A stretch of 64,000 nt of DNA from Planctomycetota bacterium (GTDB lineage Bacteria; Planctomycetota; UBA11346): positions 50,982 to 114,981 of the forward strand of contig BJHQ01000005.1 of NCBI GenBank assembly GCA_014193115.1, in the 5' to 3' direction. The notes beneath the pieces were generated by a model. The model ran no database searches. It was given only the letters and a program-made list of their open reading frames with translations, and was not told the origin of the DNA. The first letter of the stretch is position 1. Each line of letters begins with the position of its first letter. Made by a program: the position numbers and the translations under genes. This document shows positions 3-47,300 of this stretch, in pieces.

Positions 3-452
3 GTCGCCAGCACCAAGCGCAGCTATGGCCAGGTCCGGGATCGCAGCCTGCCCCATCGCGTCGTCGTGCTCGGTCTGTGCCACCACGACGGCCGTTATCT
101 TGTGGCCAAACGTCCTGCCGACCGCCACGCCGGCGGGATGTGGGAACTGCCCGGAGGCAAGCGCGAGGTGGGTGAAGACGATCGCGTCGCATTGGCGAGG
201 GAATTAACTGAGGAACTTGGCGTCGAGCTGCTCGCCGCCCGCCACCTGATGCGCTACAGCTACAATTATCCTGATCGGGCTCTCACCTTTCAGGTCTATC
301 GCTGCCGCCTGTTCGATCCTCAGAACGCCCGGGCGTTGGACGGCCAAACCGACCTGCGCTGGGTCACGCCCCAGGGATTGCTCGCGCTGTCCTTCCCCCC
401 GGCCAATGCTGCGATCCTTGCCAGATTGCGCCGCTATCATCGGATTCTCTGA
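3..452 (+). CDS. NUDIX hydrolase (MutT-like); N-terminus unresolved or outside window
   Basis: Nudix box GGKREVGEDDRVALARELTEELGV (GX5EX7REUXEEXGU). The reading frame is open back to the window edge with no in-frame ATG upstream of VLGLCHHDG. Confidence 0.7.
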   Translation, partial: VASTKRSYGQVRDRSLPHRVVVLGLCHHDGRYLVAKRPADRHAGGMWELPGGKREVGEDDRVALARELTEELGVELLAARHLMRYSYNYPDRALTFQVYRCRLFDPQNARALDGQTDLRWVTPQGLLALSFPPANAAILARLRRYHRIL

Positions 453-3525: not shown

Positions 3526-5319
3526 GTGACCGTGGCGATTCCCGATTCGGGCCAGAACCTGTGCGAGGTGGTCGGCGTCTCCCACGAGTTCCGGCAACCC
3601 AATGGCAGCCCGCTCACGGTGCTGCGCGACATCACCCTCGGGATTCGTCCGCGCGAGGTCATCGCCCTGCTCGGCCCGTCGGGCTGCGGCAAATCGACCC
3701 TGCTGCGGATCCTCGCCGGGCTGATCCAGCCGACCCAGGGAACCGTGCTCTATCGCGGAGCTCCCTTTCCCGGGATCAACCCCGGGATGGCGCTAGTCTT
3801 CCAGAGTTTCGCGTTGTTCCCGTGGTTGACGGTGGCTGAGAACATCCGCACGGTCCTGGAGGCTGCCGGCCTGACGCCGGGCGACTGCGCGGAACGGGCG
3901 GCCCATGCGATCAAGCAGGTCGGTCTGATCGGGTTTTCCGGCGCCTATCCCCGGGAACTTTCCGGCGGGATGAAGCAACGGGTGGGCGTCGCCCGGGCCA
4001 TCGCCCTGGATCCGGAAATCCTGTTCCTGGACGAGCCGTTCTGCCATGTCGACGCCCTGACCGCTGAAGGGCTGCGGGCCGAGGTCCTCGATCTGTGGGC
4101 GGCGCCCGGCGGCAATCCGTCTTCGATCCTGGTGGTCAGCCACGACATCGCCGAGGTCGTGCAGATGGCCGACCGCATCGTGCTGCTTGGGGCCAATCCT
4201 GGCCAGGTCCGGCAGATCGTGGCCAATCCCCTGCCCAGGCCACGGGATCTGCGCTCGGCTGCCGCTCAGCAGCTGATCGATCGCATGCATGACCTGATCA
4301 CCGGTCATGAACTGCCCGACCAGCAGCCCGACCAGACCGTGCTGGCGGCGAAGCCTGACCGCTTGGCGTCCCTGCCCTCTGTCCGCGCCAACCAGGTGAT
4401 GGGTCTGCTGGAGATGCTCGACTCGCGGGGTGGTACCGAGGATCTGTTCCGCTTGATCAAGGACACCGGCCACGAGTTCGGATCCTTGATCCAGGTGGTG
4501 AAGGCGGCGGAGCTGCTCGGCTGCGTCACCACTCCGAAGCGCCAGGTGGTGCTGAACGATGACGGCCGGAACCTGGTCCGCGCCGACCTGCCGCATCGGC
4601 CTGCGTTGTGGCGTGCCTGCCTCGAAAAGGTGGCCATCATCAACCAGATGGTCGAATTGGTGCGGCAACGCGGAGCAGTAGGCCTGAGCCGAGAGGTGCT
4701 GGTCGAAGCGCTGATCCTGGCCCTGCCGGGCGAGGACTATGACCAGCAGTTCGCCACCTTGATCGCCTGGTGCCGGATCGGCGAGCTGCTGAATTATGAG
4801 AGGAAAAACGGTGTCGTCTCGATCGCCACACCGACACGCCACATGCAGATTCCCCGGATCGACCTCGCCCCGTACCTGGATCCGCGGCGGATCCTGCTGA
4901 TGGAAGGCCAGCCAGCCAAGGCCGATGTGCTCGTTCGCCTGGCCGGTCTGTTCGCCACTTCGCCGGCGGTCGGCGATGGGCCAGCCTTCTCTGCCGCAGT
5001 CATGTCCCGCGAGGCCCTGGCCAATACCGGTGCCGGCCACCGCGTGGCGCTGCCCCACGCCCAGCTCGATTCGATCAGCGAGGTCGTGGCCGCCATCGCG
5101 GTGATCCGCGCCGGATGCGATTTCGCTGCAGCCGACGGCCAGACCGTGCAGGTCGTGGCAATGATCGCCGCACCGACCCGGGATCGGCCACGCTATTTGA
5201 AATTGCTGTCGGCGATCGCTGCCAGGCTCAGCCAGGAGGAGGTGCGTGAGCGGATCGTGCAGGCCAAGCATCCGGATCAGGTGATCGCGGCGATGGTTGA
5301 TCACGCAGTCCCTGGGTGA
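3526..5319 (+). CDS. ABC transporter ATP-binding protein (NitT/TauT-type) with a C-terminal AAA-associated-like middle domain and a PTS EIIA-2 (IIA-Ntr-like) domain
   Basis: GTG start with GAGG RBS. Walker A GPSGCGKST, signature LSGGMKQRV, Walker B ILFLDEP. C-terminal GHRVALPHAQLDS...VQVVAMIAAPTRDRPRYLKLLSAIAARL resembles PTS_EIIA_2 and retains the PH histidine. Confidence 0.75.
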   Translation: MTVAIPDSGQNLCEVVGVSHEFRQPNGSPLTVLRDITLGIRPREVIALLGPSGCGKSTLLRILAGLIQPTQGTVLYRGAPFPGINPGMALVFQSFALFPWLTVAENIRTVLEAAGLTPGDCAERAAHAIKQVGLIGFSGAYPRELSGGMKQRVGVARAIALDPEILFLDEPFCHVDALTAEGLRAEVLDLWAAPGGNPSSILVVSHDIAEVVQMADRIVLLGANPGQVRQIVANPLPRPRDLRSAAAQQLIDRMHDLITGHELPDQQPDQTVLAAKPDRLASLPSVRANQVMGLLEMLDSRGGTEDLFRLIKDTGHEFGSLIQVVKAAELLGCVTTPKRQVVLNDDGRNLVRADLPHRPALWRACLEKVAIINQMVELVRQRGAVGLSREVLVEALILALPGEDYDQQFATLIAWCRIGELLNYERKNGVVSIATPTRHMQIPRIDLAPYLDPRRILLMEGQPAKADVLVRLAGLFATSPAVGDGPAFSAAVMSREALANTGAGHRVALPHAQLDSISEVVAAIAVIRAGCDFAAADGQTVQVVAMIAAPTRDRPRYLKLLSAIAARLSQEEVRERIVQAKHPDQVIAAMVDHAVPG

Positions 5320-5420
5320 GCGGCCTCCCTGCAAATAATCTTGAAAAAGAGTTGGCGGTGGGACGCAGGCCTTGATCGGTCCAGAACCTTGGGGAACTAG
5401 CGCTTGCCCGGGTCCGCGCA

Positions 5421-6800
5421 TTGCCTATCGCCAACGCCGTGGACCAGAACACGCCGATTCCTTGCGGGCCGCCAGGTCTCGACCAGCTGCTGGCGCGGCT
5501 GGGATCGCAGCCGCAGGAGCAGGACTGGGCCGAACTCGTCCGGTGCATGGCCAAGCCGGTGCACACGGTGGCCTTTCGGATCTGCGGCGATGCGAGCTTG
5601 GCGGAGGATGTCTCCCAGGAGACCTTCCTGGCGGTGGCCCGGGCCCTGCCCCGCTACCGCAGCCAGGGCGATCTCCAGGCCAGAGCCTGGATCATGCGCA
5701 TCGCCGCCAATCGGGCGATCTCCATCACCGGGCGGCAGCCGCGGCATCGGCGCATCTTCACTGACGATCTCGCAGCGGCCGGTCCTGACGCGCCGTCAGG
5801 GGAGCTGCTCGACGCGGTGCGCAGCGAGATCTGCGACCTGCCAGACCGGTACCGGCTGCCTATCGTCCTGCGTTTCCTCGACGGCAGGAATTACGGAGAG
5901 ATCGCCAGCGTCCTGACCTGGACCGAGGCGCGGGCGCGAAAAGCCGTGGAACGCGGCTTGGACCTGTTGCGCAGCCGGCTGGCGCGCCGGGGCGTCCCGG
6001 CGTCACTGGCGCTGTGCGCGGCGTGGTGCAGCCAAGCAGGCGCGAGCGAGCCTCCGACGCCCCTGGCTTTGACCGGCGCCCTCGCCCGCCGGCCGGAGGT
6101 CACCGCCTGGCCGTTGACCAGCTCAGTCTTTGGCGCAGTCATCGGCTCGGCCATCGTCGCCGTCCTGGCGACGACGGTGGCGATCATCACGACCAGCAAT
6201 CCCAGCGCGGCGCCAAGCTCCACCACGGTAGGCACCCCGGCCCTCGAACGCTTTATCGCGGCGTTCCGGGCTGATCATCCTGCGACGCGGCGGCGCGACA
6301 CCCTGGAGCGGTTTGAGGCTGGAACTTGGCAGATGGAGGGTCCATGGCGAACGCTTGGCGATGGGACAGCCGCCATCGATCTGCCCGCGAGCAAGGATTG
6401 GACCGAGGCTCGGCTGGTCCTCGACCTCCCGCTCGACCTGGAACACGGCAACGCTCAATTGCTGGCGATCCGATGCGACCAAGCGGTTGAGGATGGTCGA
6501 TTCGCCATTGGGCTAGCCGGATTCGTCGCAAACAAGCAGGTGTTCGACTACCAGGTGGGCCGGGGCGATCGCCAAGCCGCCGAGTCGTTCTCTCGTGTTG
6601 CCGGAAAACTGGCGATGGCGATCCGGATCGACCGGCAAGGAGCGAGGCTCCTGGTGGATGAACGGAGCGATCTGCCCACCCGCAGTCTCGCCGAGCTTGG
6701 GGTATCTGCCGATCGCATCCGCCTGGGCGTGGTGGTTGCCGCCCGTGGCGCCGCCGTCGCCGGGCACATTCAGGTGGTGCAGATCCTGACCGCGCCGTAA
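5421..6800 (+). CDS. ECF (sigma-70 family) sigma factor fused to a C-terminal transmembrane helix and a ~230-aa extracytoplasmic domain
   Basis: Sigma region 2 (ETFLAVARALPRYRSQGDLQARAWIMRIAANRAIS) and region 4 HTH (YGEIASVLTWTEARARKAVERGLDLL). A TM helix VFGAVIGSAIVAVLATTVAIITT follows. The ORF runs a further ~230 aa with no stop. Confidence 0.65.
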   Translation: MPIANAVDQNTPIPCGPPGLDQLLARLGSQPQEQDWAELVRCMAKPVHTVAFRICGDASLAEDVSQETFLAVARALPRYRSQGDLQARAWIMRIAANRAISITGRQPRHRRIFTDDLAAAGPDAPSGELLDAVRSEICDLPDRYRLPIVLRFLDGRNYGEIASVLTWTEARARKAVERGLDLLRSRLARRGVPASLALCAAWCSQAGASEPPTPLALTGALARRPEVTAWPLTSSVFGAVIGSAIVAVLATTVAIITTSNPSAAPSSTTVGTPALERFIAAFRADHPATRRRDTLERFEAGTWQMEGPWRTLGDGTAAIDLPASKDWTEARLVLDLPLDLEHGNAQLLAIRCDQAVEDGRFAIGLAGFVANKQVFDYQVGRGDRQAAESFSRVAGKLAMAIRIDRQGARLLVDERSDLPTRSLAELGVSADRIRLGVVVAARGAAVAGHIQVVQILTAP

Positions 6801-7055
6801 GTCGATTTGGATGACGCAGTTGGAGAACTGCCAAGGCGCCAAACGTCACACGGAAGAAGGCTGAAGGCAGCGCCATCCGCACCTGGTCAGTCCTCCAGCC
6901 AGCGGAGCCTTTCCCAGGTTTTTCCTGATGTCTTGGCGTCTTGGCGGTTCATCTGCTGGCTCGCGGCGTAACCTGTTTAGTGTTTGAGACACCCGGTTGC
7001 GATGCCTGGGCTTGGCCGTCACGCCGACCCGGCCTCCAGGGATTGAGCATCCTGA

Positions 7056-10000
7056 ATGGAGCTCCCCATGCGACTGAGCCGTTTTCCGGTTTGGATCTAC
7101 CTCGTATTTGCCCTGGCCCTGATGGCGGCGATCCCTGCGGTGGAGACCGTCCCCTTTGGTACGGGCCGACTGATCGGCGACGTCGGAGTCGACGGCGTCC
7201 GCCTCGACTGGAACCTCGCGGCGGAAGGGGGCTATCTGGTCGAACGGCGCTCGGATGGCCGGTTCGTGGAGGTTGCTCGGCTTCCCGCCGGTGCCACCGG
7301 AATGACCGATCCGGTTCGCTTCGGGCAGTTCCGCTGGCGGGTCACAGCACTCGATCGCCGTGGTCGGCCAGAGTCGCGATCGGCCGAGCTGGTGCTGGCT
7401 GTGGAGGTGGTGCAGCGGGATGCAGGCGGAACCGTGCTGCGCTACGGCGATACGCCCAGATCAGATCTGGTTGGCGCCACTGCGTCGCCGCTGGCCGCTG
7501 CGGGGCTCACCGACCCGGCCGTTGCTCAAGCCAATGCCGTCACTTTGAGCGGCGATTACCGCATCGACGCCCTGCTCGGCGATGCCCTGCAACCTGGATT
7601 TACGCCGGTGTCCGATCTGAAATTCGCCTTCTCCACCGCCCCCGGCACCGTCCCCAGCGAAGGGATCAAGGCGAATTACCGCCTGATCTTCGCACGGTTG
7701 GCCCAGATCATCCCAGTCACTTGCACCGAGGTCGCCACCGGCGGCAACATCCTCATCAAACTCGCCCCGGTCGGCTATGGGATGGCAGGCCCCGGCCTGG
7801 TCATGCTCAACGCGAGCTACGACCGCACCGGCGACACCAATGGCTTTCGCAATCCGCCAGGATCCCACGGCTTCCAGGCCCTGGTCCATGAACTCGGGCA
7901 CGCCCTTGGGCTCAAGCATCCCTTCGACGGCAACATCCACCTTCCTCCGGCCGAGGATACCCAGGCGCACACGGTGATGACCTACAATTTCTCCGCCAAT
8001 GAACCCGGGACGTTCATGCCCTACGATATCCTGGCGCTGCAATACCTGTACGGGAGGCCGACCGCCGGGACCGGGGGCACCTATGCCTTCTCGACCCCGT
8101 GGACCTATCAGCGCAACGGGCAGACCTGGTTCGCAACGACCTGGACCACCCGCCAATGCCTCTGGGGGACCGGGGCAGACGTGCTCGATTTTTCTGGACT
8201 GGCGGCAGGGTCCTACCGGTTCGATCTCAATCCCGGAGGCCGCCTGGGAACCACCGGTGCGGTATCGGCAAGCACCTTCACCAACGGCACGGTTCTGGCC
8301 TACGGTTCATCGTTTCCGGCCATCGTCACCTCCATCGGCAATGACGAGGTGACGCTGAGCAGCCCAGCCAATCTGATCAGGGGCTATGTCGCCGGACGCA
8401 CGTGCGGGGCCGACCGCATGCTCAGCGGTCGTCCGGACGATCGCCTCGACCTGTCGGCCTTTCCCCGCAGTGCGGTGCAACGGACTCGTCAGGGCGACGA
8501 CCTGCGCCTCGACCTGCCGAGCGGGATCGGTTCGATCACCATACCCGGGTTCTATGCCGCGGGCTGGATCCAGGTGGTCTATGCCGACAGCCATCCGCCG
8601 GTGGCCTCCAGCCAGGATTTGCAGGCGATCGAGAACCTGGCGCTGCCGATCACCCTGGCCGCCAGCGATGCGGATGGAGACGCACTGGCTTGGACGGTGC
8701 AGGCGCCAGCACGGGGCCGCCTGCTCGGGACGGCGCCTTCGCTGATCTATCTGCCGCCGGCCAATTGGACTGGAACCGACACGGTCGCGTTTTTCGTGAA
8801 CGATGGCAAGGAAACGTCGAACACTGCCCAGGTGTCGATTGCCGTCCGTGCACCTGGCGTTACCCCGACCGTGGAAGCCGGACCCGACCGCTCCACCAAC
8901 CGCTTCACGCCCATCACCCTGTCCGGCACCGCCACCGACGCATCGGGTCAGGCGCTGTCGCTGACCTGGTCCCAGGACTCCGGCCCTGAAAAGACGGTGT
9001 TCACCAGCCCGGTTGGCGGGTCGGTGACCGCCGCTTTCACCGCGGTCGGCACCTACCAGCTGCGCCTGAGCGCCACCAATGGCACCGCTACTGCCAGCGA
9101 CACCACCACCGTCACCGTGGTTCCCAGCCAAAATCCCGGGGTCGTTTCGTTCACCGCCGCGACCGTTGCGGTGCGCGAAGCCTCCGGACGGGTCACGGTC
9201 ACCGTCCAACGCACTGGTGGGGATCACGGCCAAGCGTCGATCTCATGGAGGACGGTGGCGATCACGGCCACCGAAGAAGATTACATGCGCGGCGTTGGTG
9301 GCATCGTCAGCTGGAATGACCAGGATGACGAGACCCAACAGATTGACCTCTCCATCTACGACAACCTTCTCGTCGATGGTCCGCGTACCTTCCGGTTTGA
9401 ACTCTATCGGCCCACCGGCGGGGTCGTGCTCGGATCACCGGCAACCCTGCTGGCGACCATCGTCGATGATGACGGGGTCAACCGGCCGCCGACCGCCACG
9501 TCGGCGAGCGGGAGCGTGGTTCAAGACGGCTCCCTGCCCTTGGTGCTGACCGCATCCGATCCGGACAACGACCCGTTGAGCTGGACGGTTCAAGCTCCGG
9601 CCCACGGCGTCCTTGCGGGCACTGCGCCGCATCTGACGTACACCCCGGACAGTGGCTACCGCGGCACGGATGCCGTGGTCTTCAGAGTTTCCGATACCCG
9701 GGCCCAATCGCCCAGCGCGACCGTGGCCATCACCGTGCAGGCGGTGAACCGTCCGCCCAGGCCAAGCGCCGGTCCCGACCGGAAGCTGGTCCTGCCCGCC
9801 TCCATCGTCCTGGCCGGAGGCGGCTCTGATCCGGATGGGGATTCGCTGGCGTGGTCGTGGACCAAGGTCAGCGGGCCAAGCGCGCTCACCATTGCCAGCC
9901 CGACCGATCCGCAGTCGTCGGCCACATTCGCCGGCGCCGGTACCTACCGGCTCCGCCTGGCCGCCTCCGACGGCACCGCCACCGTCGCCGACGAGGTCGT

Positions 10001-13000
10001 CTTCATCACCAGGACGAACACTGCTCCAGTCGCCAATGCAGGTCCTGATCGGGTGCTGTCGAGCCCAGGAGCAGTGACAATCAACGGGGAAGGACCTGAT
10101 GCTGATGGCGATCCCGTGCAGGCGCTGTGGACCCAGGTTTCTGGTCCGGCTGCCGCGGTGATCGACCAGCCGCGTCAACTGACAACGTCCATCCGCTTTC
10201 CAGTGACCGGGATCTACCGGCTGGTGTTGACGGTGGCCGACGGCCTGGCAACGACCAGTGACGAGGTGGTGGTCTCGGTGGGGAATCCTGGCGTGGCCCT
10301 GGATACTATTGAGTCGAAGGGCAATACCTCGTTGCTGAAGCATCCCATTGACAAGAAATACTTCGCCCGACCAGGAACGGGGACGCCGGTCCAGATCAGC
10401 AATCTGGGTCAGCAGATTTACGAAGGCATATATTCCGGCTGGACCCTGCTCGCGGCAGAAAATCTCAACAGCGAAAATCGTGCGCTCTGGCGCAACGAAT
10501 CAGGCCATTACCTGCACATCTGGCATCTGAATGCAAATTGGCAATGGACTTCCTCAGAAGGGCAGTGGAACTTCGGGACGGCCGAGGCGAACGCCCTCGA
10601 GGTCGCATTCCAAATTGATGCTGACGGGAATGGGACGATCGGCGGACCAGTGAATCAAGCCCCGACGTTCACCACCCATCCGCCGAACGCCGTGGTGACC
10701 GCAGGTCAGACCGCGACGTTCACCGTCGTCGCCAGCGGTACCCCGGCGCCGACGTACCAGTGGCAATCCGCACCGGCCACGGGCGCGTTCACCAACATCA
10801 GCGGCGCGACCGCAGCGAGCTACACCACGTCGGCGACGACGCTGGCGCAGAGCGGTACCCGCTTCCAGGTCATCGCGACCAACAGCGTGAGTGCGGTGAC
10901 TTCGGCCGTGGCGACGTTGACGGTCAATCCCGCCCCGGTCGGCCCGACGTTCACCACCCATCCGGGGAACGCCGTGGTGACCGCAGGTCACACCGCGACA
11001 TTCGCCGTCGTCGCCAGTGGCACCCCGACGCCGACGTACCAGTGGCAATCCGCACCGGCCTCGGGCGCGTTCGCCAACATTAGCGGCGCGACCGCGGCGA
11101 GCTACACCACGCCGGCGACGACGCTGGCGCAGAGCGGTACCCGCTTTCAGGTCATCGCGACCAACAGCGTGAGCGCGGTAACTTCGTCGGTGGCGACGTT
11201 GACGGTCAATCCCGCCCCGGTCGGCCCGACGTTTACCACCCAACCGGTGAACGCCGCGGTGACCGCAGGTCAAACCGCGACGTTCACCGTCGTCGCCAGC
11301 GGCACCCCGGCGCCGACGTACCAGTGGCAATCCGCACCGGCCTCGGGCGCGTTCGCCAACATTAGCGGCGCGACCGCGGCGAGCTACACCACGCCGGCGA
11401 CGACCTTGGCGCAGAATGGTACCCGCTTCCAGGTCATCGCGACCAACAGCGTGAGTGCGGTGACTTCGTCGGTGGCGACGTTGACGGTCAACCCCGCCCC
11501 GGTCGGCCCGAGGTTTACCACCCAACCGGTGAACGCCGCGGTGACCGCAGGTCAGACCGCGACGTTCACCGTCGTCGCCAGCGGCACCCCGGCGCCGACG
11601 TACCAGTGGCAATCCGCACCGGCCACGGGCGCGTTCACCAACATCAGTGGCGCGACCGCGGCAAGCTACACCACGCCGGCGACGACCTTGGCGCAGAACG
11701 GTACCCGCTTCCAGGTCATCGCGACCAACAGCGTGAGCGCGGCAACTTCGTCGGTGGCGACGCTGACGGTCAATGTGACCGCGGGCGCCAATCTGGTGCT
11801 GAACTGGACCTTGGACGAGTCCAGCGGTACGGGCGCTGCCGATGCTTCCGGCCGCGGCAATACGGGTGCGGTGGGCGGCGGCGCGACCTGGGTCGCCGGC
11901 AAGGTCGGCGGGGGGCTCCAGTTCGATGGGAACAGCGGGGCCGTGGTCGCCACAAACGTAGGCGGCCTGCCAAGCGGCAATCAGCCGCACACCCTGGCGG
12001 CCTGGGTGAAAGTGACGGCCCTGCCAGCGAAACGAGCCTGGATCGCCCTGCTGGGGGACGTGGGCAGTGGTGCGCACCATTGGCTGATCAACAGCAATGG
12101 TGTTACCCAGTTCGGGGTGTGGAACGAGAACCAGGTGGCTCCGGTGCTCGGCGTCGGGACCTGGAAACACCTCGCCGTCACCTTCGATGGCGCGACCCAG
12201 ACCGGCTACGTCGATGGGGTGGCGATTGGCAGCACGGCAGCGACCTACAACCTCAAAGGCGTCTCCCTGAAGGTGGCCAGGGCGGTGGATTGGGAGAACG
12301 CATTTAACGGCCTGGTGGATGACGTCCGCGTCTACACCAGAGCCTTGACCGCCAGCGAAGTCTCGGCGCTGGCAGGCGCGACCCTCAACACCGGTCTAGT
12401 GCTCAACTGGAGACTGGACGAGACCAGCGGTGGCGTCGCAGCCGATTCTTCTGGCCGCAGCAATTCAGGGGTGGTAGGCGGAGGCGTGACCTGGACGGCC
12501 GGCAAGCTCGGTGGGGCGCTCCAGTTCGATGGAGTGAACGGCGCAGTGGCCACGACCAGCCTGGGAGGGCTGCCGACCGGCAACCAGGCGCACACCTTGG
12601 CGGCGTGGGTGAAGGTCACTGCCCTACCGGCGAACCGCGCCTGGATCGCCCTGCTCGGCGATGCGGGGGTCGGAGCGCACCACTGGTTGATCTACCGCTC
12701 CGGAGCCACGCAGTTCGGAGCGTGGAGCTCCGGCCAGGTCACGCCTGCGCTTGGCGTCGGCACCTGGAAGCACCTCGCCGTTACCTTCGATGGCACCACG
12801 TTGACCGGATACATGAATGGAGTGGCGATCGGAACCACCGCGGCGACCTTCAGTCTCAAGGGCGTATCGCTAAGCCTGGCCCGAGCCCAGGAGGGTGAAA
12901 ACGCCTTCAAAGGCCAGGTGGATGACGTCCGCGTCTACGCTCGGGCCTTGACTGCCAGCGAGATTTCCGCCCTTGCCGGAACGACTGCGCAAGCGGCCGC

Positions 13001-13145
13001 CCTCGCCTTCACCGAGCCGGTGAACGAAACGGAAACTTCCACCGGCATCGGTGGAGGCAGCAGCGGCTGCGGGCTTGGCAGTGGATTGGCCCTGATCGGC
13101 CTTGCATTCGGGATCGCCCTGGGAGGACGAAGGAGGTGGAGCTGA
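7056..13145 (+). CDS. Secreted multidomain metzincin (M10/serralysin-like) protein with cadherin/PKD/Calx-beta/Ig/LamG domains and a MYXO-CTERM-like tail
   Basis: Signal peptide. VHELGHALGLKHPFDG (HEXXHXXGXXH), Met-turn VMTYNF and YDILALQYLYG. PKD-like and Big/cadherin-like domains, a Calx-beta domain, four near-identical ~94-aa Ig repeats and two LamG-like domains. C-terminus SSGCGLGSGLALIGLAFGIALGGRRRWS. Confidence 0.8.
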   Translation: MELPMRLSRFPVWIYLVFALALMAAIPAVETVPFGTGRLIGDVGVDGVRLDWNLAAEGGYLVERRSDGRFVEVARLPAGATGMTDPVRFGQFRWRVTALDRRGRPESRSAELVLAVEVVQRDAGGTVLRYGDTPRSDLVGATASPLAAAGLTDPAVAQANAVTLSGDYRIDALLGDALQPGFTPVSDLKFAFSTAPGTVPSEGIKANYRLIFARLAQIIPVTCTEVATGGNILIKLAPVGYGMAGPGLVMLNASYDRTGDTNGFRNPPGSHGFQALVHELGHALGLKHPFDGNIHLPPAEDTQAHTVMTYNFSANEPGTFMPYDILALQYLYGRPTAGTGGTYAFSTPWTYQRNGQTWFATTWTTRQCLWGTGADVLDFSGLAAGSYRFDLNPGGRLGTTGAVSASTFTNGTVLAYGSSFPAIVTSIGNDEVTLSSPANLIRGYVAGRTCGADRMLSGRPDDRLDLSAFPRSAVQRTRQGDDLRLDLPSGIGSITIPGFYAAGWIQVVYADSHPPVASSQDLQAIENLALPITLAASDADGDALAWTVQAPARGRLLGTAPSLIYLPPANWTGTDTVAFFVNDGKETSNTAQVSIAVRAPGVTPTVEAGPDRSTNRFTPITLSGTATDASGQALSLTWSQDSGPEKTVFTSPVGGSVTAAFTAVGTYQLRLSATNGTATASDTTTVTVVPSQNPGVVSFTAATVAVREASGRVTVTVQRTGGDHGQASISWRTVAITATEEDYMRGVGGIVSWNDQDDETQQIDLSIYDNLLVDGPRTFRFELYRPTGGVVLGSPATLLATIVDDDGVNRPPTATSASGSVVQDGSLPLVLTASDPDNDPLSWTVQAPAHGVLAGTAPHLTYTPDSGYRGTDAVVFRVSDTRAQSPSATVAITVQAVNRPPRPSAGPDRKLVLPASIVLAGGGSDPDGDSLAWSWTKVSGPSALTIASPTDPQSSATFAGAGTYRLRLAASDGTATVADEVVFITRTNTAPVANAGPDRVLSSPGAVTINGEGPDADGDPVQALWTQVSGPAAAVIDQPRQLTTSIRFPVTGIYRLVLTVADGLATTSDEVVVSVGNPGVALDTIESKGNTSLLKHPIDKKYFARPGTGTPVQISNLGQQIYEGIYSGWTLLAAENLNSENRALWRNESGHYLHIWHLNANWQWTSSEGQWNFGTAEANALEVAFQIDADGNGTIGGPVNQAPTFTTHPPNAVVTAGQTATFTVVASGTPAPTYQWQSAPATGAFTNISGATAASYTTSATTLAQSGTRFQVIATNSVSAVTSAVATLTVNPAPVGPTFTTHPGNAVVTAGHTATFAVVASGTPTPTYQWQSAPASGAFANISGATAASYTTPATTLAQSGTRFQVIATNSVSAVTSSVATLTVNPAPVGPTFTTQPVNAAVTAGQTATFTVVASGTPAPTYQWQSAPASGAFANISGATAASYTTPATTLAQNGTRFQVIATNSVSAVTSSVATLTVNPAPVGPRFTTQPVNAAVTAGQTATFTVVASGTPAPTYQWQSAPATGAFTNISGATAASYTTPATTLAQNGTRFQVIATNSVSAATSSVATLTVNVTAGANLVLNWTLDESSGTGAADASGRGNTGAVGGGATWVAGKVGGGLQFDGNSGAVVATNVGGLPSGNQPHTLAAWVKVTALPAKRAWIALLGDVGSGAHHWLINSNGVTQFGVWNENQVAPVLGVGTWKHLAVTFDGATQTGYVDGVAIGSTAATYNLKGVSLKVARAVDWENAFNGLVDDVRVYTRALTASEVSALAGATLNTGLVLNWRLDETSGGVAADSSGRSNSGVVGGGVTWTAGKLGGALQFDGVNGAVATTSLGGLPTGNQAHTLAAWVKVTALPANRAWIALLGDAGVGAHHWLIYRSGATQFGAWSSGQVTPALGVGTWKHLAVTFDGTTLTGYMNGVAIGTTAATFSLKGVSLSLARAQEGENAFKGQVDDVRVYARALTASEISALAGTTAQAAALAFTEPVNETETSTGIGGGSSGCGLGSGLALIGLAFGIALGGRRRWS
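10650..11780 (+). repeat. Intragenic tandem repeat, ~282 bp x4, >90% DNA identity, encoding Ig-like domains
   Basis: PTFTT(H/Q)P.NA.VTAGQTATFTVVASGTP.PTYQWQSAPA.GAF.NISGATAASYTTPATTLAQ.GTRFQVIATNSVSAVTS.VATLTVNPAPVG is repeated four times. Unit starts are near 10662, 10941, 11226 and 11508. Confidence 0.85.
11780..12975 (+). repeat. Intragenic duplication of a ~590-bp LamG-like (Laminin_G_3) domain, two diverged copies
   Basis: LVLNW.LDE.SG...AAD.SGR.N.G.VGGG.TW.AGK.GG.LQFDG..GAV.T...GGLP.GNQ.HTLAAWVKVTALPA.RAWIALLGD.G.GAHHWLI appears twice. Confidence 0.8.
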
Positions 13146-13280
13146 ACCTCGAACTGGAGCCAGATCTGGCCAGGTCGGGTAGGGTTCTGACCGCTGCTAA
13201 ATGGGTGTTTGAGACACCCGGTCGTTGAGCAAGAGCTTGGCCGTCACGCCGACCCGGCCTCCTGGGATTGAGCATCCTGA

Positions 13281-16200
13281 ATGGAGCTCCCCATGCGACT
13301 GAGCCGTTTTCCGGATTGGATCTACCTCGTATTTGCCCTGGCCCTGATGGCGGTGATCCCTGCGGTGGAGACCGTCCCCTTCGGTACGGGCCGATTGATC
13401 GGTGACGTCGGAACCGACGGCGTCCGCCTCGACTGGAACTTCGCGTCGGAAGGGGGCTCCCTGGTCGAGCGGCGCTCGGATGGCCGGTTCGTCGAGGTCG
13501 CTCGGCTTCCGGCCGGTGCCACTGGAATGACCGATCCGGTTCGCTTCGGGCAGTTCCGCTGGCGGGTCACCGCCCTCGATCGCAGTGGTCGACAGATGGT
13601 GCGTTCGGCCGAACTGGTGCTGGCGGTGGAGGTGGTGCAGCAGGATGCTGGCGGAACTGTGCTGCGCTACGGAGATACGCCCCGACCAGGCCAGTTTGGT
13701 GCCGCTGCGTCGCCGCTGGCCGCTGCAGGACTCACTTCCCCGGCCGCGGCCCAAACGGATACCGTCACCATGAGCGGCGATTACCGCATCGATGCCCTGC
13801 TTGGTGATGCCCTTCAGGCCGGATTCATCCCGATCCGGACCTGGACCTACTCCTTCGCCACCGCTTCCGGCAGCGTCCCCAGTGATGCGATCAAGGCCAG
13901 TTATCGTCTGATCTTTGCAAACATGCCCCAGATCATCCCTGCCACCTTCACCGAGGTCGCCATCGGCGGCAACATTGGCATCGGACTCGGCCCAGCCGAC
14001 TATGCGATGGGCGGCGGCGGTTCGATCATCCTCAACCCAAGTTATGACCGCACCGGGGACACCAACGGCTTCCGTAATCCACCAGGTTCGCACGGCTTCC
14101 AGGCCCTGGTCCACGAACTCGGGCATGTCCTCGGACTCAAGCATCCCCATGACGGCAATATCCACCTGCCGCCTGCGGAAAATTCCCAGGCCTACACGGT
14201 GATGACCTACAATTTTTCGGCCAATGAACCGGCGACCTTCATGCCCTACGATGTCATGGCCTTGCAGTACCTGTACGGCAAGCCGGCGGTCGGCGCCGCG
14301 AGCACCTATGTCTTCTCGACCCCATGGACCTTCAGGCGCAACGGGCTGACCTGGTTCGCAACGACCCTGACCACCCGCCAGTGCATCTGGGGGACCGCTG
14401 CCGACGTGCTCGATTTTTCGGCTCTGGCGGCTGGATCCTACCGCTACGACCTCAATCCCGGAGGCCGCCTGGGAACCACCAGTGCGGTGTCGGGAACGAC
14501 CTTTTCCAGCGGCACCGTCCTGGCCCAAGATTCATCCTTCGCTTCCATCATTACCTCCATCGGCAATGACGAGGTGACGTTGAGCAGCCCAGCCAACCTG
14601 ATCAGCGGTTTTGTCTCCGGACGTTCGTGCGGAGCAGACCGCCTGCTTGGCGGCCGTCCGGACGATCGCCTCGACCTGTCGGTGTTCTCGCGCAGCGCGG
14701 TGCTGCGGACCCGTCAGGGCGACGATCTGCGCCTCGACCTGCCAGGCGGGATCGGGTCGATCACCATCGCCGGATTTTATGCCGCGGGGTGGGTCCAGGT
14801 GATTTATGCCGACAGCCATCCACCGGTGGCCTCCAGTCTGAATCTGCAGGCGGTCGAGAACCAGGCCCTGCCGATCACCCTGGTTGCCAGCGATGCGGAT
14901 GGCAATCCCTTGAGCTGGACGGTGCAGGCACCGGGACGGGGCCGCCTGATCGGGGCCGCGCCGTCGCTGATCTACCTGCCGCCAGCCAATTGGACTGGCA
15001 CCGATACTTTCACGTTTTCGGTGAATGATGGCCTGGATTCCTCCAATACTGCCCAAGTATCGATCACCGTCCTTCCGCCTGGCTCCATCCCGTCGGTGGA
15101 GGCCGGACCCGATCGCACCACCAATCGCTTCTTACCCATCGCCCTGTCCGGCACCGCCACGAACGCGTCCGGTCAGGTCCTGGCTCTGTCCTGGTCGCAG
15201 GACTCCGGCCCCGCCCAGACCGTTTTCAGCAGCCCGGCGGGCGGGTCGGCGACTGCTGCCTTCGCGGCCGTTGGCACGTACCACCTGCGCCTGACCGCCA
15301 CCAACGGCTCCGCCACCGCTAGCGACACCACCACCGTGACCGTGGTTCCCAGCTCAAATCCTGGCGTCGCCTCTTTCACCGCCGCGACCGCTGCGGTGAG
15401 CGAATCGTCCGGGCGAGTTACCGTTACCATCCAACGCACCGATGGGGATCACGGTCAGGCCTCGATCTCATGGAGAACGGTGGCGATCACCGCCACCGAA
15501 GACGATTATATCCACGGCATTGGCGGCACCGTCACATGGAATGACCAGGATGACGAGGCCCAGCAGTTCGACCTCTCCATTTACGACAACGACCTCGTCG
15601 ATGGTCCGCGTACGTTCCGGTTTGAACTCTATCGACCCACCGGCGGGGTCGTGCTCGGATCGCCGGCGATTCAGGTGGTGACCATAGTCGATGATGATGG
15701 CGTCAACCGGCCGCCGACTGCCACGTCGGCGAATGCGAGCGTACTCCAGGATGGCGTTCTATCCTTGGTGCTGACCGCCTCCGATCCAGATCATGACCCG
15801 TTGATCTGGACCGTGCGGCCGCCTGCTCATGGCGTCCTGACCGGCACCCCACCCAACCTGAGCTATGCACCTGCCCACGGATATCGCGGCACGGACGCCG
15901 TGGTCTTCTCGGTCTCCGATACCCGGGTCCAGTCGCCCAACGCGACCGTGGCCATCACCGTGCAGGCAGTGAACCATCCGCCTGTGGCGAGCGCTGGTCC
16001 CGACCGGAATCTGGTCCTGCCCGCTGCCATCGCCTTGGCTGGAGGCGGTTCAGATCCGGATGGCGATTCGCTGACCTGGTCGTGGACCAAGGTCAGCGGG
16101 CCAAGCGCGCTCACCATTGCCAATCCGACCGATCCGCGTTCCTCGGCCACGTTCGCCGCCGTCGGCACCTACCGGCTCCGCCTGACCGCCTCAGACGGCT

Positions 16201-16679
16201 CTGCCACCGCCGCCGACGAGGTCGTCATCGCCATCAGGGCCAACACCACCCCGGTCGCGAATGCGGGTCCCGATCTGGTTCTGTTGGGTCCAGGATCAGC
16301 CACGATCGGCGGGCAGGCCCCTGATGCTGATGGCGATCCGGTGCAGACTTTATGGACTCAGGTCTCCGGCCCAGTTGTCGCGGTGATCGACCAGCCGCGC
16401 CAACTGGCGACTTCCATCCGCTTCCCGGTCACCGGAATCTATCGGCTGTTGTTGACCGTGACCGACGGCCTGGCTTCGACCAGCGATGAGGTGGTCGTAT
16501 CGGTTGCCGTCCGGCGCATGATCGAGATTCGCCTGGTCCCCAATGGGGTGGATGCCGCCATCCAACTGGACGGCCGAAATCCGGATCAGGTCAGGCCTGA
16601 CGGCACTGCCCAGTTCACCACCTCGGCTTCATCCAACCACGTGGCATCCTTCCTGACGCCTCCGAGAGGAAAGAACTGA
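13281..16679 (+). CDS. Truncated paralog of the upstream metzincin protein: protease, cadherin-like, PKD and Calx-beta domains only, with no Ig/LamG region and no C-terminal tag
   Basis: About 85% aa identity to residues 1-1075 of the 7056..13145 product, including HELGHVLGLKHPHDG. Homology ends near 16497 and a unique ~60-aa tail follows. The ~75 bp upstream of the ATG are almost identical between the two genes. Confidence 0.75.
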   Translation: MELPMRLSRFPDWIYLVFALALMAVIPAVETVPFGTGRLIGDVGTDGVRLDWNFASEGGSLVERRSDGRFVEVARLPAGATGMTDPVRFGQFRWRVTALDRSGRQMVRSAELVLAVEVVQQDAGGTVLRYGDTPRPGQFGAAASPLAAAGLTSPAAAQTDTVTMSGDYRIDALLGDALQAGFIPIRTWTYSFATASGSVPSDAIKASYRLIFANMPQIIPATFTEVAIGGNIGIGLGPADYAMGGGGSIILNPSYDRTGDTNGFRNPPGSHGFQALVHELGHVLGLKHPHDGNIHLPPAENSQAYTVMTYNFSANEPATFMPYDVMALQYLYGKPAVGAASTYVFSTPWTFRRNGLTWFATTLTTRQCIWGTAADVLDFSALAAGSYRYDLNPGGRLGTTSAVSGTTFSSGTVLAQDSSFASIITSIGNDEVTLSSPANLISGFVSGRSCGADRLLGGRPDDRLDLSVFSRSAVLRTRQGDDLRLDLPGGIGSITIAGFYAAGWVQVIYADSHPPVASSLNLQAVENQALPITLVASDADGNPLSWTVQAPGRGRLIGAAPSLIYLPPANWTGTDTFTFSVNDGLDSSNTAQVSITVLPPGSIPSVEAGPDRTTNRFLPIALSGTATNASGQVLALSWSQDSGPAQTVFSSPAGGSATAAFAAVGTYHLRLTATNGSATASDTTTVTVVPSSNPGVASFTAATAAVSESSGRVTVTIQRTDGDHGQASISWRTVAITATEDDYIHGIGGTVTWNDQDDEAQQFDLSIYDNDLVDGPRTFRFELYRPTGGVVLGSPAIQVVTIVDDDGVNRPPTATSANASVLQDGVLSLVLTASDPDHDPLIWTVRPPAHGVLTGTPPNLSYAPAHGYRGTDAVVFSVSDTRVQSPNATVAITVQAVNHPPVASAGPDRNLVLPAAIALAGGGSDPDGDSLTWSWTKVSGPSALTIANPTDPRSSATFAAVGTYRLRLTASDGSATAADEVVIAIRANTTPVANAGPDLVLLGPGSATIGGQAPDADGDPVQTLWTQVSGPVVAVIDQPRQLATSIRFPVTGIYRLLLTVTDGLASTSDEVVVSVAVRRMIEIRLVPNGVDAAIQLDGRNPDQVRPDGTAQFTTSASSNHVASFLTPPRGKN

Positions 16680-16737
16680 GATCTCGGAAAAATGCAAGGA
16701 ATCGACGACACTCGTCGACGGATTCGACGCTCCAGCG

Positions 16738-17943
16738 TCACACCGCCAGACCGGCAGCGTGCCCCGAAGCCCAGGCCCAATGGAAGTTGTAGCCACCCAG
16801 CCAGCCGGTGACGTCGACGACTTCGCCGATGCAGAACAGGCCGGGGACATTCCTGGCTTCCATGGTTTGCGAGGACAGTCCGTGGGTGTCGATCCCGCCG
16901 CGAGTGACTTCGGCTTTGCGGTAGCCCTCGGTTCCGGTCGGGCTTAGGGTCCAAGCATGGAATGCGGTTTCGAGAGCCGCGAGATCCCGTCGCTCCAGGC
17001 GCGCTGCCGGCCGGTCGCCGAAATCCGCCAGCCGCGCCTGCACCAGGCGCTTGGGCAGCAGTTCAGCCAGATGGGTTGAAACCAGGGCCTGGGAGCCGGC
17101 GTCCTGGGCTTTCACCAGAAGTTCAGCAGCGCTGGCGCCAGGCAGCAGATCCACCGTGATCTCGTCGCCGGGATTCCAGTACGACGATATTTGGAGCACG
17201 GCCGGTCCGCTGATGCCGCCATGGGTGAACAGCAGGTTTTCGCGGAATTCAGCCGAACCGCAGGTGATCCGGGCGTCGACCGCGATGCCCGACAGGGCCG
17301 ACAACCCGAGGCCGGGATCAAGCGTGAATGGAACTAGGGCAGGTGCGGTCGGGCGGACGGCCAAGCCGAACTGCCGGGCAAGACGATGACCGAAGTCCGT
17401 GGCGCCGATGGTGGGGAGCGACAATCCGCCCGTGGCCAGCACCAGGCGTTGGGCGACCACCGGTCCGGCAGAGGTCGCCAGGTGGAATCCATCGGCATTT
17501 CTTTCGACCGATCCGACTCTGCAGCCGGGATGGACCGTGGCGCCGGCGCTGGCGCACTCGGCGAGCAACAGGGCGACGATCTCCTTGGCTGAGCCAGTGC
17601 AGAACAGCTGGCCATGGTCGCGTTCGTGATAGACGATGCCGTGGCGCTCGACCAGGGCGATGAAGTCCTCTGGGGTATAGCGGGCTAGCGCCGACCGGCA
17701 GAAATGCGGGTTGCCCGACAAGTAATTGTCGGCGCTGACCTGGCGGTTGGTGAAATTGCAGCGCCCGCCGCCCGAGATCAGAATCTTCCGCCCGATCTTG
17801 TCGCTGTGGTCGAGCACCAGCACGGACCGGCCACGGCGCCCGGCGGTGGCGGCGCAGAACAGGCCGGCAGCGCCGCCGCCGATCACCACGACATCCCAGC
17901 TCGGCACGGCGGGGGGACCTTCTGGCCGGATGGGCCGGTGCAA
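16738..17943 (-). CDS. HI0933/YhiN/BaiN-family FAD-dependent oxidoreductase; the true start may be a downstream GTG
   Basis: WDVVVIGGGAAGLFCAATAGRRGRSVLVLDHSDKIGRKILISGGGRCNFTN is typical of the family. The family-level protein length fits. Confidence 0.75.
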   Translation of the reverse strand: MHRPIRPEGPPAVPSWDVVVIGGGAAGLFCAATAGRRGRSVLVLDHSDKIGRKILISGGGRCNFTNRQVSADNYLSGNPHFCRSALARYTPEDFIALVERHGIVYHERDHGQLFCTGSAKEIVALLLAECASAGATVHPGCRVGSVERNADGFHLATSAGPVVAQRLVLATGGLSLPTIGATDFGHRLARQFGLAVRPTAPALVPFTLDPGLGLSALSGIAVDARITCGSAEFRENLLFTHGGISGPAVLQISSYWNPGDEITVDLLPGASAAELLVKAQDAGSQALVSTHLAELLPKRLVQARLADFGDRPAARLERRDLAALETAFHAWTLSPTGTEGYRKAEVTRGGIDTHGLSSQTMEARNVPGLFCIGEVVDVTGWLGGYNFHWAWASGHAAGLAV

Positions 17944-20555: not shown

Positions 20556-21293
20556 TCACGCACGGGGGCCGTCGCGGTGCTCGACCCAGCGATCGTCAGC
20601 GTAGCGTTGCCCGAAGATCCGCTCGGCGGCGGCGGTCTCTGCTGGTGTCGGCCGATCCTCGACCAAGTGCATGGCGAAGGCTTCGGAGATGCCCTCCACC
20701 ACAGCGGCGGCCGCCGCTTCTGGGTCAAGCCCGCAACCAGCGGCGGAGGCCCCATCCCAGGGATTGCTCGCCAGCTTCAGACTGCCATGGACCAGGACCC
20801 TGGCGCCGCGGCGGCGGGCGGCCGAGCCGAGGACCTTCCCGCCATCCACCGCCAGCAGGTCGTCGGTCGCAGGCGACGCGAAACAACGCGGCTCGTCGCG
20901 GTAGCGGCGGTCGCCAACGCTGGTCGGCTGTCGGCGGAGCCTGCCTCCACGACCCTCGACTGATGCTTGGATCGCCTGATGCAGGCGATGATACAGCTCG
21001 GCCGGCCGCTCCGGAACCACGCCGATATCGGCGGCCAGGGCATAGGTGACCTCCTGTTCATGCCAGATGGCTCCTCCGCCGGTGATCCTCCGCACCAGAT
21101 CGATGCCGGCTGGTAATTGCCTACGGATCGGGGCCGCCTCCTGAAAATACCCCAAGGACACGGCCGGAGGTTCCCATCGATACAACCGCAGCACCGCACC
21201 GGTGGATGCCTCCAGCAGGGCCTCATCCCAGGCCATCTGGACCGCTCCCGCGGTCGCGGTGGTCGGCAGCAGCCGACATCTGATCCGTGACAT
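20556..21293 (-). CDS. Lipoate-protein ligase / octanoyltransferase family protein (BPL_LplA_LipB domain)
   Basis: N-terminal AVQMAWDEALLE, then LYRWEPPAVSLGYFQ and ...RRITGGGAIWHEQEVTYAL, consistent with the LplA/LipB catalytic domain. Confidence 0.65.
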   Translation of the reverse strand: MSRIRCRLLPTTATAGAVQMAWDEALLEASTGAVLRLYRWEPPAVSLGYFQEAAPIRRQLPAGIDLVRRITGGGAIWHEQEVTYALAADIGVVPERPAELYHRLHQAIQASVEGRGGRLRRQPTSVGDRRYRDEPRCFASPATDDLLAVDGGKVLGSAARRRGARVLVHGSLKLASNPWDGASAAGCGLDPEAAAAAVVEGISEAFAMHLVEDRPTPAETAAAERIFGQRYADDRWVEHRDGPRA

Positions 21294-21367
21294 CAGGTCC
21301 GGTTGTCACGGCCGATCCGGTACCTACAAGACCCGGACGCGGCCGGCAAACCGCAGGAGTTCAGCCC

Positions 21368-25206: not shown

Positions 25207-25328
25207 GGGTCAATCCTGCGGTCCAGGACCGGCCAAGGCCAGCCCAGGGAATCGGCTGCGGGATCTGGTCATGCGCAGGCGAGCGGCAGACAGCGCCAGC
25301 CAGCGGCAACCTCCGCGCAGCCAGCTGC

Positions 25329-25865: not shown

Positions 25866-26030
25866 GGGCGGCGATGGAGCCTATCCTGGACTTGGGCTTA
25901 CAAGCCTTGGCAGGTTCCGCCACGGCGGTCCCTGGCTGACATGGGAACGAAATTTGTGTACCCATCGAGTGAGTCACCCGGTGTGACACCCGCCATGCAA
26001 CGACTGGAACGCCCTCAGGTGCCAGATACC

Positions 26031-38007: not shown

Positions 38008-38190
38008 GCCTCGGGTCCGTCAGCGTGCAGGGGTGCCTGGTCGAGACCCGAAACGGCTAAGCGTGCATCCATTGGCAAAGGTTGCGAAGCAGGACTTCGA
38101 TGCACAAGAGGGCCTCGCGTCGCTCGGCGATCGGTGTCTCCGCATCACCCGAATATCACGACATGAGTACTGCCGCCAGACCAGTGTAAG

Positions 38191-46253: not shown

Positions 46254-46286
46254 ACCCGCATCACCACCGATCGGAAAGTCCACACT

Positions 46287-47279: not shown

Positions 47280-47300
47280 GTTCCATCAACGTATCACCGG

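Follow-up and report, generated by a model that had tools for sequence, protein, structure and literature searches.

A fused ECF sigma factor gene and a conserved leader beside two tandem genes for serralysin-like proteases in an uncultured planctomycete

Introduction

How an uncultured freshwater planctomycete might control two very large secreted proteases encoded side by side is the question raised by a locus on contig BJHQ01000005.1 of assembly GCA_014193115.1. We analyzed a stretch of 64,000 nucleotides from this contig (positions 50,982 to 114,981, hereafter the window), whose G+C content is ~65%. The same DNA is contained, in reverse orientation, in the ENA metagenome scaffold MEHR18-4_SAMD00112397_METAG-scaffold_11 (202 kb). 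The PheS encoded in the window is 100% identical to a protein recorded for a "Planctomycetota bacterium", and the match after it reaches 78%, so that the host is a planctomycete from a poorly sampled group. On the + strand, the gene for an extracytoplasmic function (ECF) sigma factor is followed by a leader, a long protease gene (copy 1), a second leader and a shorter, paralogous protease gene (copy 2). A first-pass annotation, made from the sequence without database searches, had drawn attention to this arrangement.

On balance, we lean toward a reading in which the sigma factor, fused to a sensor, drives a compact promoter located before the genes of two paralogous serralysin-like proteases, both exported through Sec, of which one is anchored and the other free; we are much more confident of the assignments of the individual proteins than of this full chain. 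The sigma core, joined through one transmembrane (TM) helix to an extracytoplasmic domain of ~200 residues, would constitute a one-component sensor of the sigma/anti-sigma kind. A cue at the outer domain would lead the sigma factor to direct RNA polymerase to a promoter inside each leader, consisting of a -35 element (CACCCGGTYG), a 17-nt spacer containing a variable patch, and a -10 element (CCGTCAC). The resulting 5' untranslated region (5'UTR) of ~40 nt would carry a conserved GGGATTGAGCAT block and then a GGAG ribosome-binding site. The predicted targets are two Sec-exported M10B zinc proteases with cadherin-like, PKD and Calx-beta modules. The long copy, with a W_rich_C domain, four immunoglobulin-like (Ig) repeats and two laminin G-like (LamG) domains, would be held on the cell surface by a Cys-containing tripartite C-terminal signal, and the short copy, lacking an anchor, would be released.

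Results and Discussion

The two protease genes share a leader that is conserved across species

A segment of about 75 bp before each protease gene had been described as nearly identical in the two copies, and alignment agrees with this description. Over the 76 nt that lead up to the first ATG, the two copies agree at 67 positions, and a 12-nt patch accounts for eight of the nine mismatches; outside this patch the leaders match at 63 of 64 positions, or at 75 of 76 when all 88 nt are considered. Each conserved block occurs exactly twice in the 64-kb window, against ~0 expected by chance. The synonymous sites of the two copies, unlike their leaders, differ at 18-35%. The second ATG of each reading frame (7068 and 13293) is likely to be the start codon of both proteases; it is preceded by GGAG at a distance of 5 nt, and public gene calls (2025 and 1128 aa) agree with this choice.

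A related leader is present in a Logan contig of 1966 bp (L005), which encodes a sigma factor ortholog (66% identical) and, after a gap of 90 nt, the N terminus of a protease ortholog (73% identical). The leaders of the window are 76-77% identical to that of L005, whereas the flanking genes have diverged at 44-48% of their synonymous sites. The blocks conserved in all three leaders are GTGTyTsAGwCACCCGGT, TGGyCGTCACGCC, CCCGG, GGGATTGAGCAT and GAATGGAGCTC. The 12-nt patch is variable in L005 as well, and its length is fixed. Judged by these comparisons, the leader is under constraint, and its conservation across species backs the earlier suggestion that it represents a real cis-acting control element.

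The target promoters of ECF sigma factors typically combine an AAC-type -35 with a CGT-type -10 at a distance of ~16-17 nt, and -10 elements of the CGTC type are typical of this class. The sequence CCGTCAC is kept in all three leaders, and a conserved CACCCGGTYG is found 17 nt 5' of it. With moderate confidence, we assign these as the -10 and -35 elements of a putative promoter with a 17-nt spacer. The variable patch is contained within this spacer and has a fixed length, which is the pattern expected of a promoter.

Other promoter readings were considered and rejected. An ECF41-type reading (TGTCACA-N16-CGTC) of the TGAGACA/TGTCTCA sequences places them 26-29 nt from CGTC, which is too long, and a sigma-54 reading of TGGCCGTCACGCC lacks the -12 GC. 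A scan of 5200-17200 for the sigma-70 promoter consensus found no promoter-like site. An nhmmer run with a model of the leader, covering 1.07 Mb of retrieved loci, recovered nothing beyond the three sequences on which the model had been trained, and a search of JGI metagenomes with the leader as a DNA pattern gave three chance matches in unrelated contexts. A variant of the leader was seen in the assembly of a different sample (L002), in which GTGTTTG in block A of leader 2 is replaced by GAGTTTG at the position equivalent to window 13206.

A sigma factor core fused to a predicted membrane sensor

The gene preceding the proteases had been annotated as an ECF sigma factor fused to a TM helix and a C-terminal domain, and profile searches bear this out. 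The core matches Pfam Sigma70_r2 (PF04542, 49.5 bits) and r4_2 (PF08281, 27.7 bits) and its score of 49.2 bits in the ECF model TIGR02937 exceeds the cut-off of 42.9. A hydropathy scan identified a single TM helix (residues 224-252), separated from the sigma4 region by a short conserved linker of ~35 residues and followed by a domain of ~200 residues that is predicted to be mostly beta. Because the helix is preceded by Arg-Arg, the protein is probably oriented with its N terminus inside and its C terminus outside. Searches of Pfam and NCBIfam and a PDB profile search returned no match for the outer domain.

Only one full-length ortholog of the sigma factor was identified (P0122, 66% identity), and it retains both the TM helix and the outer domain. 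The remaining matches cover the core only, and among them are several ECF sigma factors whose long extensions are of the WD40 or another type. Fused extensions are a common feature of planctomycete ECF sigma factors. C-terminal extensions represent the second most common regulatory design of ECF sigma factors, with 19 groups in ECF classification 2.0 that include ECF41/42 and the multi-TM ECF263 (PMC7826278). The sigma factor of the window resembles this class in its ECF core, its long extension and the absence of a separate anti-sigma gene at the locus, but its extension consists of one TM helix and an orphan extracytoplasmic domain and is found in two sequences only. The class of extended ECF sigma factors is known, but this particular extension is new.

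There is also a resemblance to FecI/FecR- and sigmaE/RseA-type pairs, in which an extracytoplasmic sensor and one TM helix are likewise combined with ECF control of neighboring genes. In the window, however, the sigma factor and the putative sensor are parts of one polypeptide, and the ~35 residues between sigma4 and the TM helix are too short for a class I anti-sigma domain. The extension of a more distant sigma factor (L012, described below) weakly matches the FecR domain (17.5 bits); a comparison of this extension with the outer domain of the window protein by hhalign was not significant (E 0.14).

The sigma factor gene adjoins the protease gene in related loci

The adjacency of the two genes is not restricted to the window and L005. 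In a JGI locus (L012), a protease of 1180 aa (45% identity, N-terminal domain included) is directly preceded, on the same strand, by a gene for an ECF sigma factor of 661 aa with a TM helix and an extension, whose core is 31% identical. In L014, genes for an ECF sigma factor and a Ser/Thr kinase are located 5' of a protease homolog (39%). The 78 other genome loci examined, and also L006, L008, L013, L098 and L099, have no sigma factor gene next to the protease gene. Sigma adjacency therefore follows the closest clade and survives strong sequence divergence, which argues for a functional link. This comparison of homologous loci, with synteny in L005 and L012 and the leader kept in L005, supports the earlier proposal that the sigma factor is a plausible dedicated regulator, and we infer that transcription from the leaders depends on it. 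Searches for more orthologs with peptides of the N-terminal domain in GTDB genomes and JGI metagenomes yielded nothing.

A shared element located 5' of an ECF gene and 5' of its target is the classical signature of an autoregulated ECF sigma factor. In L012, an element of 56 nt (45 of 56 identical) stands before both the sigma factor gene and the protease gene (2526-2595 and 4703-4772, 56-70 nt) and contains CCGTCGCG and CGCGGTCTTGCT. Its alignment score of 49 compares with a mean of 16 for shuffled sequences and was reached by none of 2000 shuffles.

Two Sec-exported proteases with a serralysin-like fold

The protease motifs that had been read from the sequence, HELGHALGLKHPFDG and HELGHVLGLKHPHDG together with TVMTYNF, are found where they had been placed. 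The HExxHxxGxxHP motif corresponds to HELGHALGLKHP (residues 278-289 counted from 7056) and HELGHVLGLKHP. In an alignment of 41 sequences, the H, E, H, G and H of the zinc motif and the M and Y of the Met-turn are invariant. The assignment to the serralysin-like (M10B) enzymes was strengthened by three approaches. First, phmmer against PDB sequences matched the alkaline protease AprA of P. aeruginosa (3e-9) over the catalytic domain and on into the first part of the beta-roll domain. This alignment takes in HEIGHTLGLSHPGD/HELGHALGLKHPFD, the Met-turn (SVMSY of AprA against TVMTY of the copies) and the DTLDFSG entry to the second domain. Second, the top 25 matches in a Foldseek search of PDB were all serralysins, covering both domains (~420-490 columns, E ~1e-15); the AlphaFold2 (AF2) model used, built with 41 homologs, has a predicted local distance difference test (pLDDT) value >90 for residues 160-505. 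Third, the NCBIfam model Zn_serralysin (NF035945) matched with an E-value of 4.5e-8.

The copies share with Serratia serralysin, AprA and PrtC of Erwinia/Dickeya (MEROPS M10B) the HExxHxxGxxHP motif, a Met-turn followed by Tyr (VMTY versus SVMSY) and a fold of catalytic and parallel beta-roll domains, including the conserved DxLDFSG entry to the latter. They differ from these enzymes in several respects. An N-terminal Sec-type signal peptide is present in both copies instead of a C-terminal type I secretion signal; a hydropathy scan shows hydrophobic segments at both ends of copy 1 and at the N terminus alone of copy 2. Pfam finds no HemolysinCabind or other repeats-in-toxin (RTX) match in either copy, and there are no adjacent genes of a type I secretion system (T1SS), the neighboring ATP-binding cassette (ABC) genes being of the importer type (BPD_transp_1 and an ABC_tran-EIIA fusion). 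The copies also add an N-terminal beta-rich domain, carry 600-1500 further residues of adhesin-like modules after the protease, and score far under the family cut-offs. They are serralysin-like M10B enzymes that have departed from the T1SS/RTX lifestyle, and both are predicted to be proteolytically active.

With regard to the other modules, Pfam recovers the Big_9/cadherin-like, PKD and Calx-beta domains claimed for both copies. The four Ig repeats and two Laminin_G_3 domains reported as extras of copy 1 are likewise present, together with a W_rich_C domain that had been overlooked. The N-terminal domain (residues ~29-135) is beta-rich in the AF2 model and matches no family. Neither this domain, nor the beta-roll domain alone, nor the tail of copy 2 has a Pfam match even at E<=10, and the unique tail of copy 2 has no relative elsewhere in the window.

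The paralogy of the two proteins holds over 1075 residues, with 862 identical (80%) in an ungapped alignment, although the figure of ~85% given for it earlier was too high. The duplicated DNA unit extends over 6980-~10285 and 13205-~16510, at an offset of 6225. Synonymous divergence (dS) between the copies is 0.47, with 35% of synonymous sites differing, and the ratio of nonsynonymous to synonymous divergence (dN/dS) is 0.24 and uniform across domains (0.21-0.27). Purifying selection acts on both copies. Over the first 135 codons, dS falls to 0.21, as against ~0.5 elsewhere, and an identity of 92-98% runs ~400 nt into the coding region, which suggests gene conversion at the 5' end. The homology of copy 2 ends at ~16505, precisely where the last PKD domain ends. 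As described in the first-pass annotation, it stops after ~1075 homologous residues without an anchor; 57 unique residues follow that contain no hydrophobic segment. The possibility, also raised there, that copy 2 is a duplication artefact of the assembly was ruled out by the dS of 0.47 and by the junction of copy 1, leader 2 and copy 2, which recurs in the independent assembly L002 with one single-nucleotide polymorphism in 500 nt.

The C-terminal tail of copy 1

Copy 1 ends in GGGSSGCGLGSGLALIGLAFGIALGGRRRWS. This tail can be written SSGCGLGSG-LALIGLAFGIALGG-RRRWS, that is, a Cys motif, a TM helix and a terminal Arg cluster, and the Cys-containing stretch before the helix is GGGSSGCGLGSG. 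A hydrophobic segment followed by RRR is thus present at the C terminus of copy 1, as had been noted, and absent from copy 2, in line with the notion of one anchored and one free paralog. With this arrangement, surface anchoring of copy 1 is a reasonable expectation. Among the other proteins of the 64-kb window, none has such a tail. A homolog of 1580 aa (P0194) ends in GGSGSNKCGLGGSLSLVVVALLAFRRRRES (L013, ~12650-12740), in which CGLG-TM-RRRR comes after a Gly/Ser-rich stretch, as in copy 1.

Cys-containing C-terminal sorting signals have been described as MYXO-CTERM, and some M36 metallopeptidases depend on the corresponding myxosortase (Haft 2023, doi 10.1101/2023.06.07.544157; PMC11980579). 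Copy 1 resembles these enzymes in being a secreted metalloprotease with PKD/cadherin repeats and a tripartite tail of Cys motif, TM helix and Arg cluster, and NF038112 matches the repeat region of the window protease. It differs from them in its catalytic family (M10, not M36), in its host (Planctomycetota) and in the score of its tail against MYXO-CTERM (TIGR03901), which is 10.1 bits against a cut-off of 20 (E 0.8). Matches to MYXO-CTERM outside Myxococcota were all judged false positives, and a later search for myxosortases added Bradymonadales only (doi 10.1101/2023.06.07.544157; PMC11980579); Planctomycetes go unmentioned in the MYXO-CTERM paper (doi 10.1101/2023.06.07.544157). The NCBIfam models of sorting signals gave no match to the copy 1 tail at threshold. 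We do not assign the tail to any named sorting system, and it hints at a Cys-type sorting signal outside Myxococcota.

A more speculative, combined proposal may be considered, to which we attach little probability. The tethered sigma factor would be activated by cleavage of its outer domain by its own proteases, their substrates or products, and CGLG-TM-RRR would represent a new Cys-type sorting signal in Planctomycetota, handled by an Rce1-like sortase that has so far been overlooked. If this were true, the cleavage-activated sigma factor would form a self-reinforcing circuit that senses proteolysis, and the signal would carry the myxosortase paradigm to a new phylum.

Weighing the proposed sigma-dependent control against its alternatives

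Several observations weigh against the preferred reading. The putative -35 element lacks the AAC core that is typical of ECF promoters. Gene conversion at the 5' end would inflate the identity between the two paralogous leaders, although it cannot explain their constraint across species. The region 5' of the sigma factor gene in the window and in L005 is unlike the leader (p 0.6, 0.19 and 0.85), and this lineage shows no sign of autoregulation. Between the L012 element and the leader of the window, only CCGTCRCG and CTCCAGGGRYTGAGC are shared, in the same order, at marginal significance (p ~0.05 by local alignment), and nhmmer detected no homology between the two. In L005, only 90 nt separate the sigma factor stop from the protease start, so that co-transcription is possible. 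With regard to the proteins, the AF2 model of the sigma factor, built from two sequences, is unusable (pLDDT 42), and the low score of the copy 1 tail was given above. The protease domain scores 17.0 and 20.2 bits against Pfam Peptidase_M10 (PF00413, cut-off 24) and 32.7 and 32 bits against Zn_serralysin (cut-off 500). The first-pass annotation had made the case for a metalloprotease dependent on support from hidden Markov models; the E-values provide this support and the curated cut-offs do not, and the claim survives narrowly.

The alternative that survives best, though we regard it as unlikely, is that the leader is an intercistronic or 5'UTR RNA element, acting in translation, processing or stability, within one sigma-protease1-protease2 operon transcribed from 5' of the sigma factor gene. 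Such an arrangement would fit the compact layout, in that the leader of L005 occupies the entire gap between sigma factor and protease, leader 2 starts just 60 nt past the stop of copy 1, and a terminator scan found no terminator-like site on the + strand in the intergenic gaps. The lack of a canonical ECF -35 would also be accounted for. Moreover, conservation reaches the Shine-Dalgarno (SD) sequence, and in the predicted minimum free energy folds of both copies, GAGC pairs with the segment that contains GGAG. However, the leaders fold no better than shuffled sequences (z -1.5 and -1.3), and inspection of the alignment indicates that the substitutions in L005 weaken the SD hairpin and are not compensatory. 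Inspection also revealed no upstream open reading frame conserved among the three leaders. A riboswitch or other structured RNA was rejected as a candidate, since Rfam yielded only tRNA at gathering thresholds, along with a chance match to DicF in 6801-7100 (E 0.72). Furthermore, a variable patch between blocks held at a fixed distance suits DNA recognition better than RNA pairing, and the equivalent element in L012 is also located 5' of the sigma factor gene itself.

Improbable in our estimation is a second alternative, in which the identity of the leaders is a passive by-product of tandem duplication and 5' gene conversion, the sigma factor is an incidental neighbor, and the proteases are controlled elsewhere. 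The high identity and low dS at the start of the coding regions speak for it, and chance adjacency would not be rare, as Planctomycete genomes are rich in ECF sigma factors and the window itself encodes a second one (25332-25880). Nevertheless, the leader is conserved across species about twice as well as synonymous sites, the adjacency of sigma factor and protease persists in L005 and L012 despite a core identity of 31% in the latter and is absent from ~85 more distant loci, and the L012 element is duplicated 5' of both genes. It is very hard to credit, finally, that copy 2 is a decaying, truncated remnant of a partial duplication with no independent role: neither the C-terminal 950 residues nor the anchor is present, and its last 57 residues have no homolog, but its frame of 1128 codons is intact, its low dN/dS is uniform over the domains despite a dS of 0.47, its truncation coincides exactly with a PKD domain boundary, and its signal peptide, zinc motif, Met-turn, leader and SD are all kept.

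Relation to other multidomain M10 proteases

The statement that this architecture is not a described system was not borne out, since multidomain M10 relatives are abundant and extended ECF sigma factors are established (PMC7826278). An exhaustive HMMER search with the protease and post-protease domains found 3485 cluster representatives at E<=1e-3, with 130 left at E<=1e-30. Proteins of 1000-3000 aa with Calx-beta, PKD or cadherin modules are frequent among them. A word-indexed homolog search had listed no protein longer than ~900 aa, so that the two proteases of the window were themselves missing from it; P0138, for example, surfaced solely in the exhaustive search of representatives. Those relatives that carry a name are annotated as "M10 family metallopeptidase" and come from cyanobacteria and other phyla, frequently with Calx-beta or PKD domains, and the closest homologs, the L005 fragment excepted, are at most 46% identical. 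A planctomycete-like contig of 266 kb (L098) encodes M10, cadherin-Big_9 and Laminin_G_3 modules at 6001-12130 in three overlapping open reading frames (ORFs; 425, 371 and 1247 aa) next to N_methyl/SBP_bac_10 genes. This set represents either a giant gene broken by frameshifts or the protease-adhesin-LamG architecture genuinely divided among separate genes. The architecture is therefore not unique.

The relatives in cyanobacteria, Acidobacteria and Planctomycetes (Gloeothece verrucosa P0006, P0138, P0194 and L098) share the protease and post-protease unit, with identities of 33-46%, and continue with Calx-beta, PKD, cadherin-like or LamG modules, and P0194 bears the CGLG-TM-RRRR tail. The window proteins differ from them in their particular module order and in the tandem anchored/free pair, the fused sigma factor located 5' and the conserved leader, none of which is found with most relatives. 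The locus is best read as a regulator-and-target module of known parts, not a new kind of system, and it does not overturn current knowledge. It nevertheless offers a small candidate pair for how a membrane-tethered sigma factor works, with a sigma factor of 453 aa, a putative promoter of 90 nt in two copies, and available orthologs. It also illustrates how surface-anchored and released forms of one protease/adhesin may arise by partial tandem duplication.

Features of the locus and its surroundings

The coordinates of all features are collected in Table 1.

Table 1. Features of the sigma factor-protease locus, in window positions
Feature	Position	Strand	Remarks
ECF-type sigma factor gene, 453 aa	5439..6800	+	start GTG at 5439
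Sigma2/sigma4 core	aa ~30-190		
Sigma factor TM helix	aa 224-252, nt ~6108-6194		predicted
Sigma factor outer C-terminal domain	aa ~255-453, nt ~6201-6797		orphan, predicted beta-rich
Leader 1, 88 nt	6980..7067	+	
Leader 1, block A	6980-6997		GTGTTTGAGACACCCGGT
Leader 1, proposed -35	6990-6999		CACCCGGTTG
Leader 1, variable 12-nt patch	6998-7009		inside proposed spacer
Leader 1, block B	from 7010		proposed -10 CCGTCAC at 7017-7023
Leader 1, conserved block	7039-7050		GGGATTGAGCAT
Leader 1, SD	7059-7062		GGAG
Copy 1, putatively anchored multidomain M10B metalloprotease, 2025 aa	7068..13145	+	ORF from 7056
Copy 1, signal peptide	7068-7139		
Copy 1, N-terminal beta-rich domain	7140-7460		
Copy 1, catalytic domain	~7536-8072		zinc motif 7887-7919, Met-turn 7974-7985
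Copy 1, serralysin-like beta-roll domain	8073-8585		
Copy 1, Big_9/cadherin-like	8592-8846		
Copy 1, PKD	8859-9119		
Copy 1, Calx-beta	9129-9473		
Copy 1, second Big_9	9480-9734		
Copy 1, two PKD	9768-10280		
Copy 1, W_rich_C	10350-10643		
Copy 1, four Ig repeats	10661-11774		4 x 282 nt, 94% alike
Copy 1, two LamG (Laminin_G_3)	~11802-13010		
Copy 1, Cys/TM/Arg tail	13050-13142		
Leader 2, 88 nt	13205..13292	+	
Leader 2, variable 12-nt patch	13223-13234		outside it, one base differs from leader 1
Copy 2, unanchored paralog, 1128 aa	13293..16679	+	ORF from 13281
Copy 2, modules as in copy 1 through the last PKD			zinc motif 14112-14144
Copy 2, unique 57-residue tail	16506-16676		

The flanking genes have housekeeping or transport functions unrelated to the sigma-protease set. 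Located 5' are genes for an ABC permease and an ABC ATPase; located 3', on the opposite strand, are genes for an HI0933-like flavoprotein and a zinc-type dehydrogenase. The ATPase (3526-5319, + strand), encoded directly 5' of the sigma factor, carries a C-terminal EIIA-2 domain of the phosphotransferase system (PTS), an unusual fusion that suggests PTS-type regulation of an importer.

Between the sigma factor and protease genes, a 15-mer (TGGCGGTTCATCTGC) occurs at 6942-6956, and in L005 the same 15-mer is found at 1-15, 5' of the sigma factor gene. Because of this different placement, the 180 extra intergenic bases of the window (6801-6979) may be a rearranged or inserted segment. A minus-strand ORF of 21 codons begins inside this region.

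Farther from the locus, a protein of 556 aa with five LysM repeats and no further recognizable domain is encoded at 21287-22957 (+ strand). The second ECF sigma factor of the window, which is of the planctomycete PF07638 type and encoded on the - strand, adjoins a Ser/Thr protein kinase gene (24723-27398, + strand), much as in L014, where such a pair lies 5' of the protease homolog. At 38247-46253 (+ strand), another giant secreted protein (~2625-2668 aa) is encoded, with a zinc motif (HELGHAIGLPH), a CarboxypepD_reg domain and repeats of the Calx-beta type; FGE-sulfatase-like and Big_7 proteins come after it. This giant gene belongs to a 10-kb stretch (38000-48000) with a G+C content of 57-60%, lower than in the rest of the window, and for this reason the stretch may be a horizontally acquired island.

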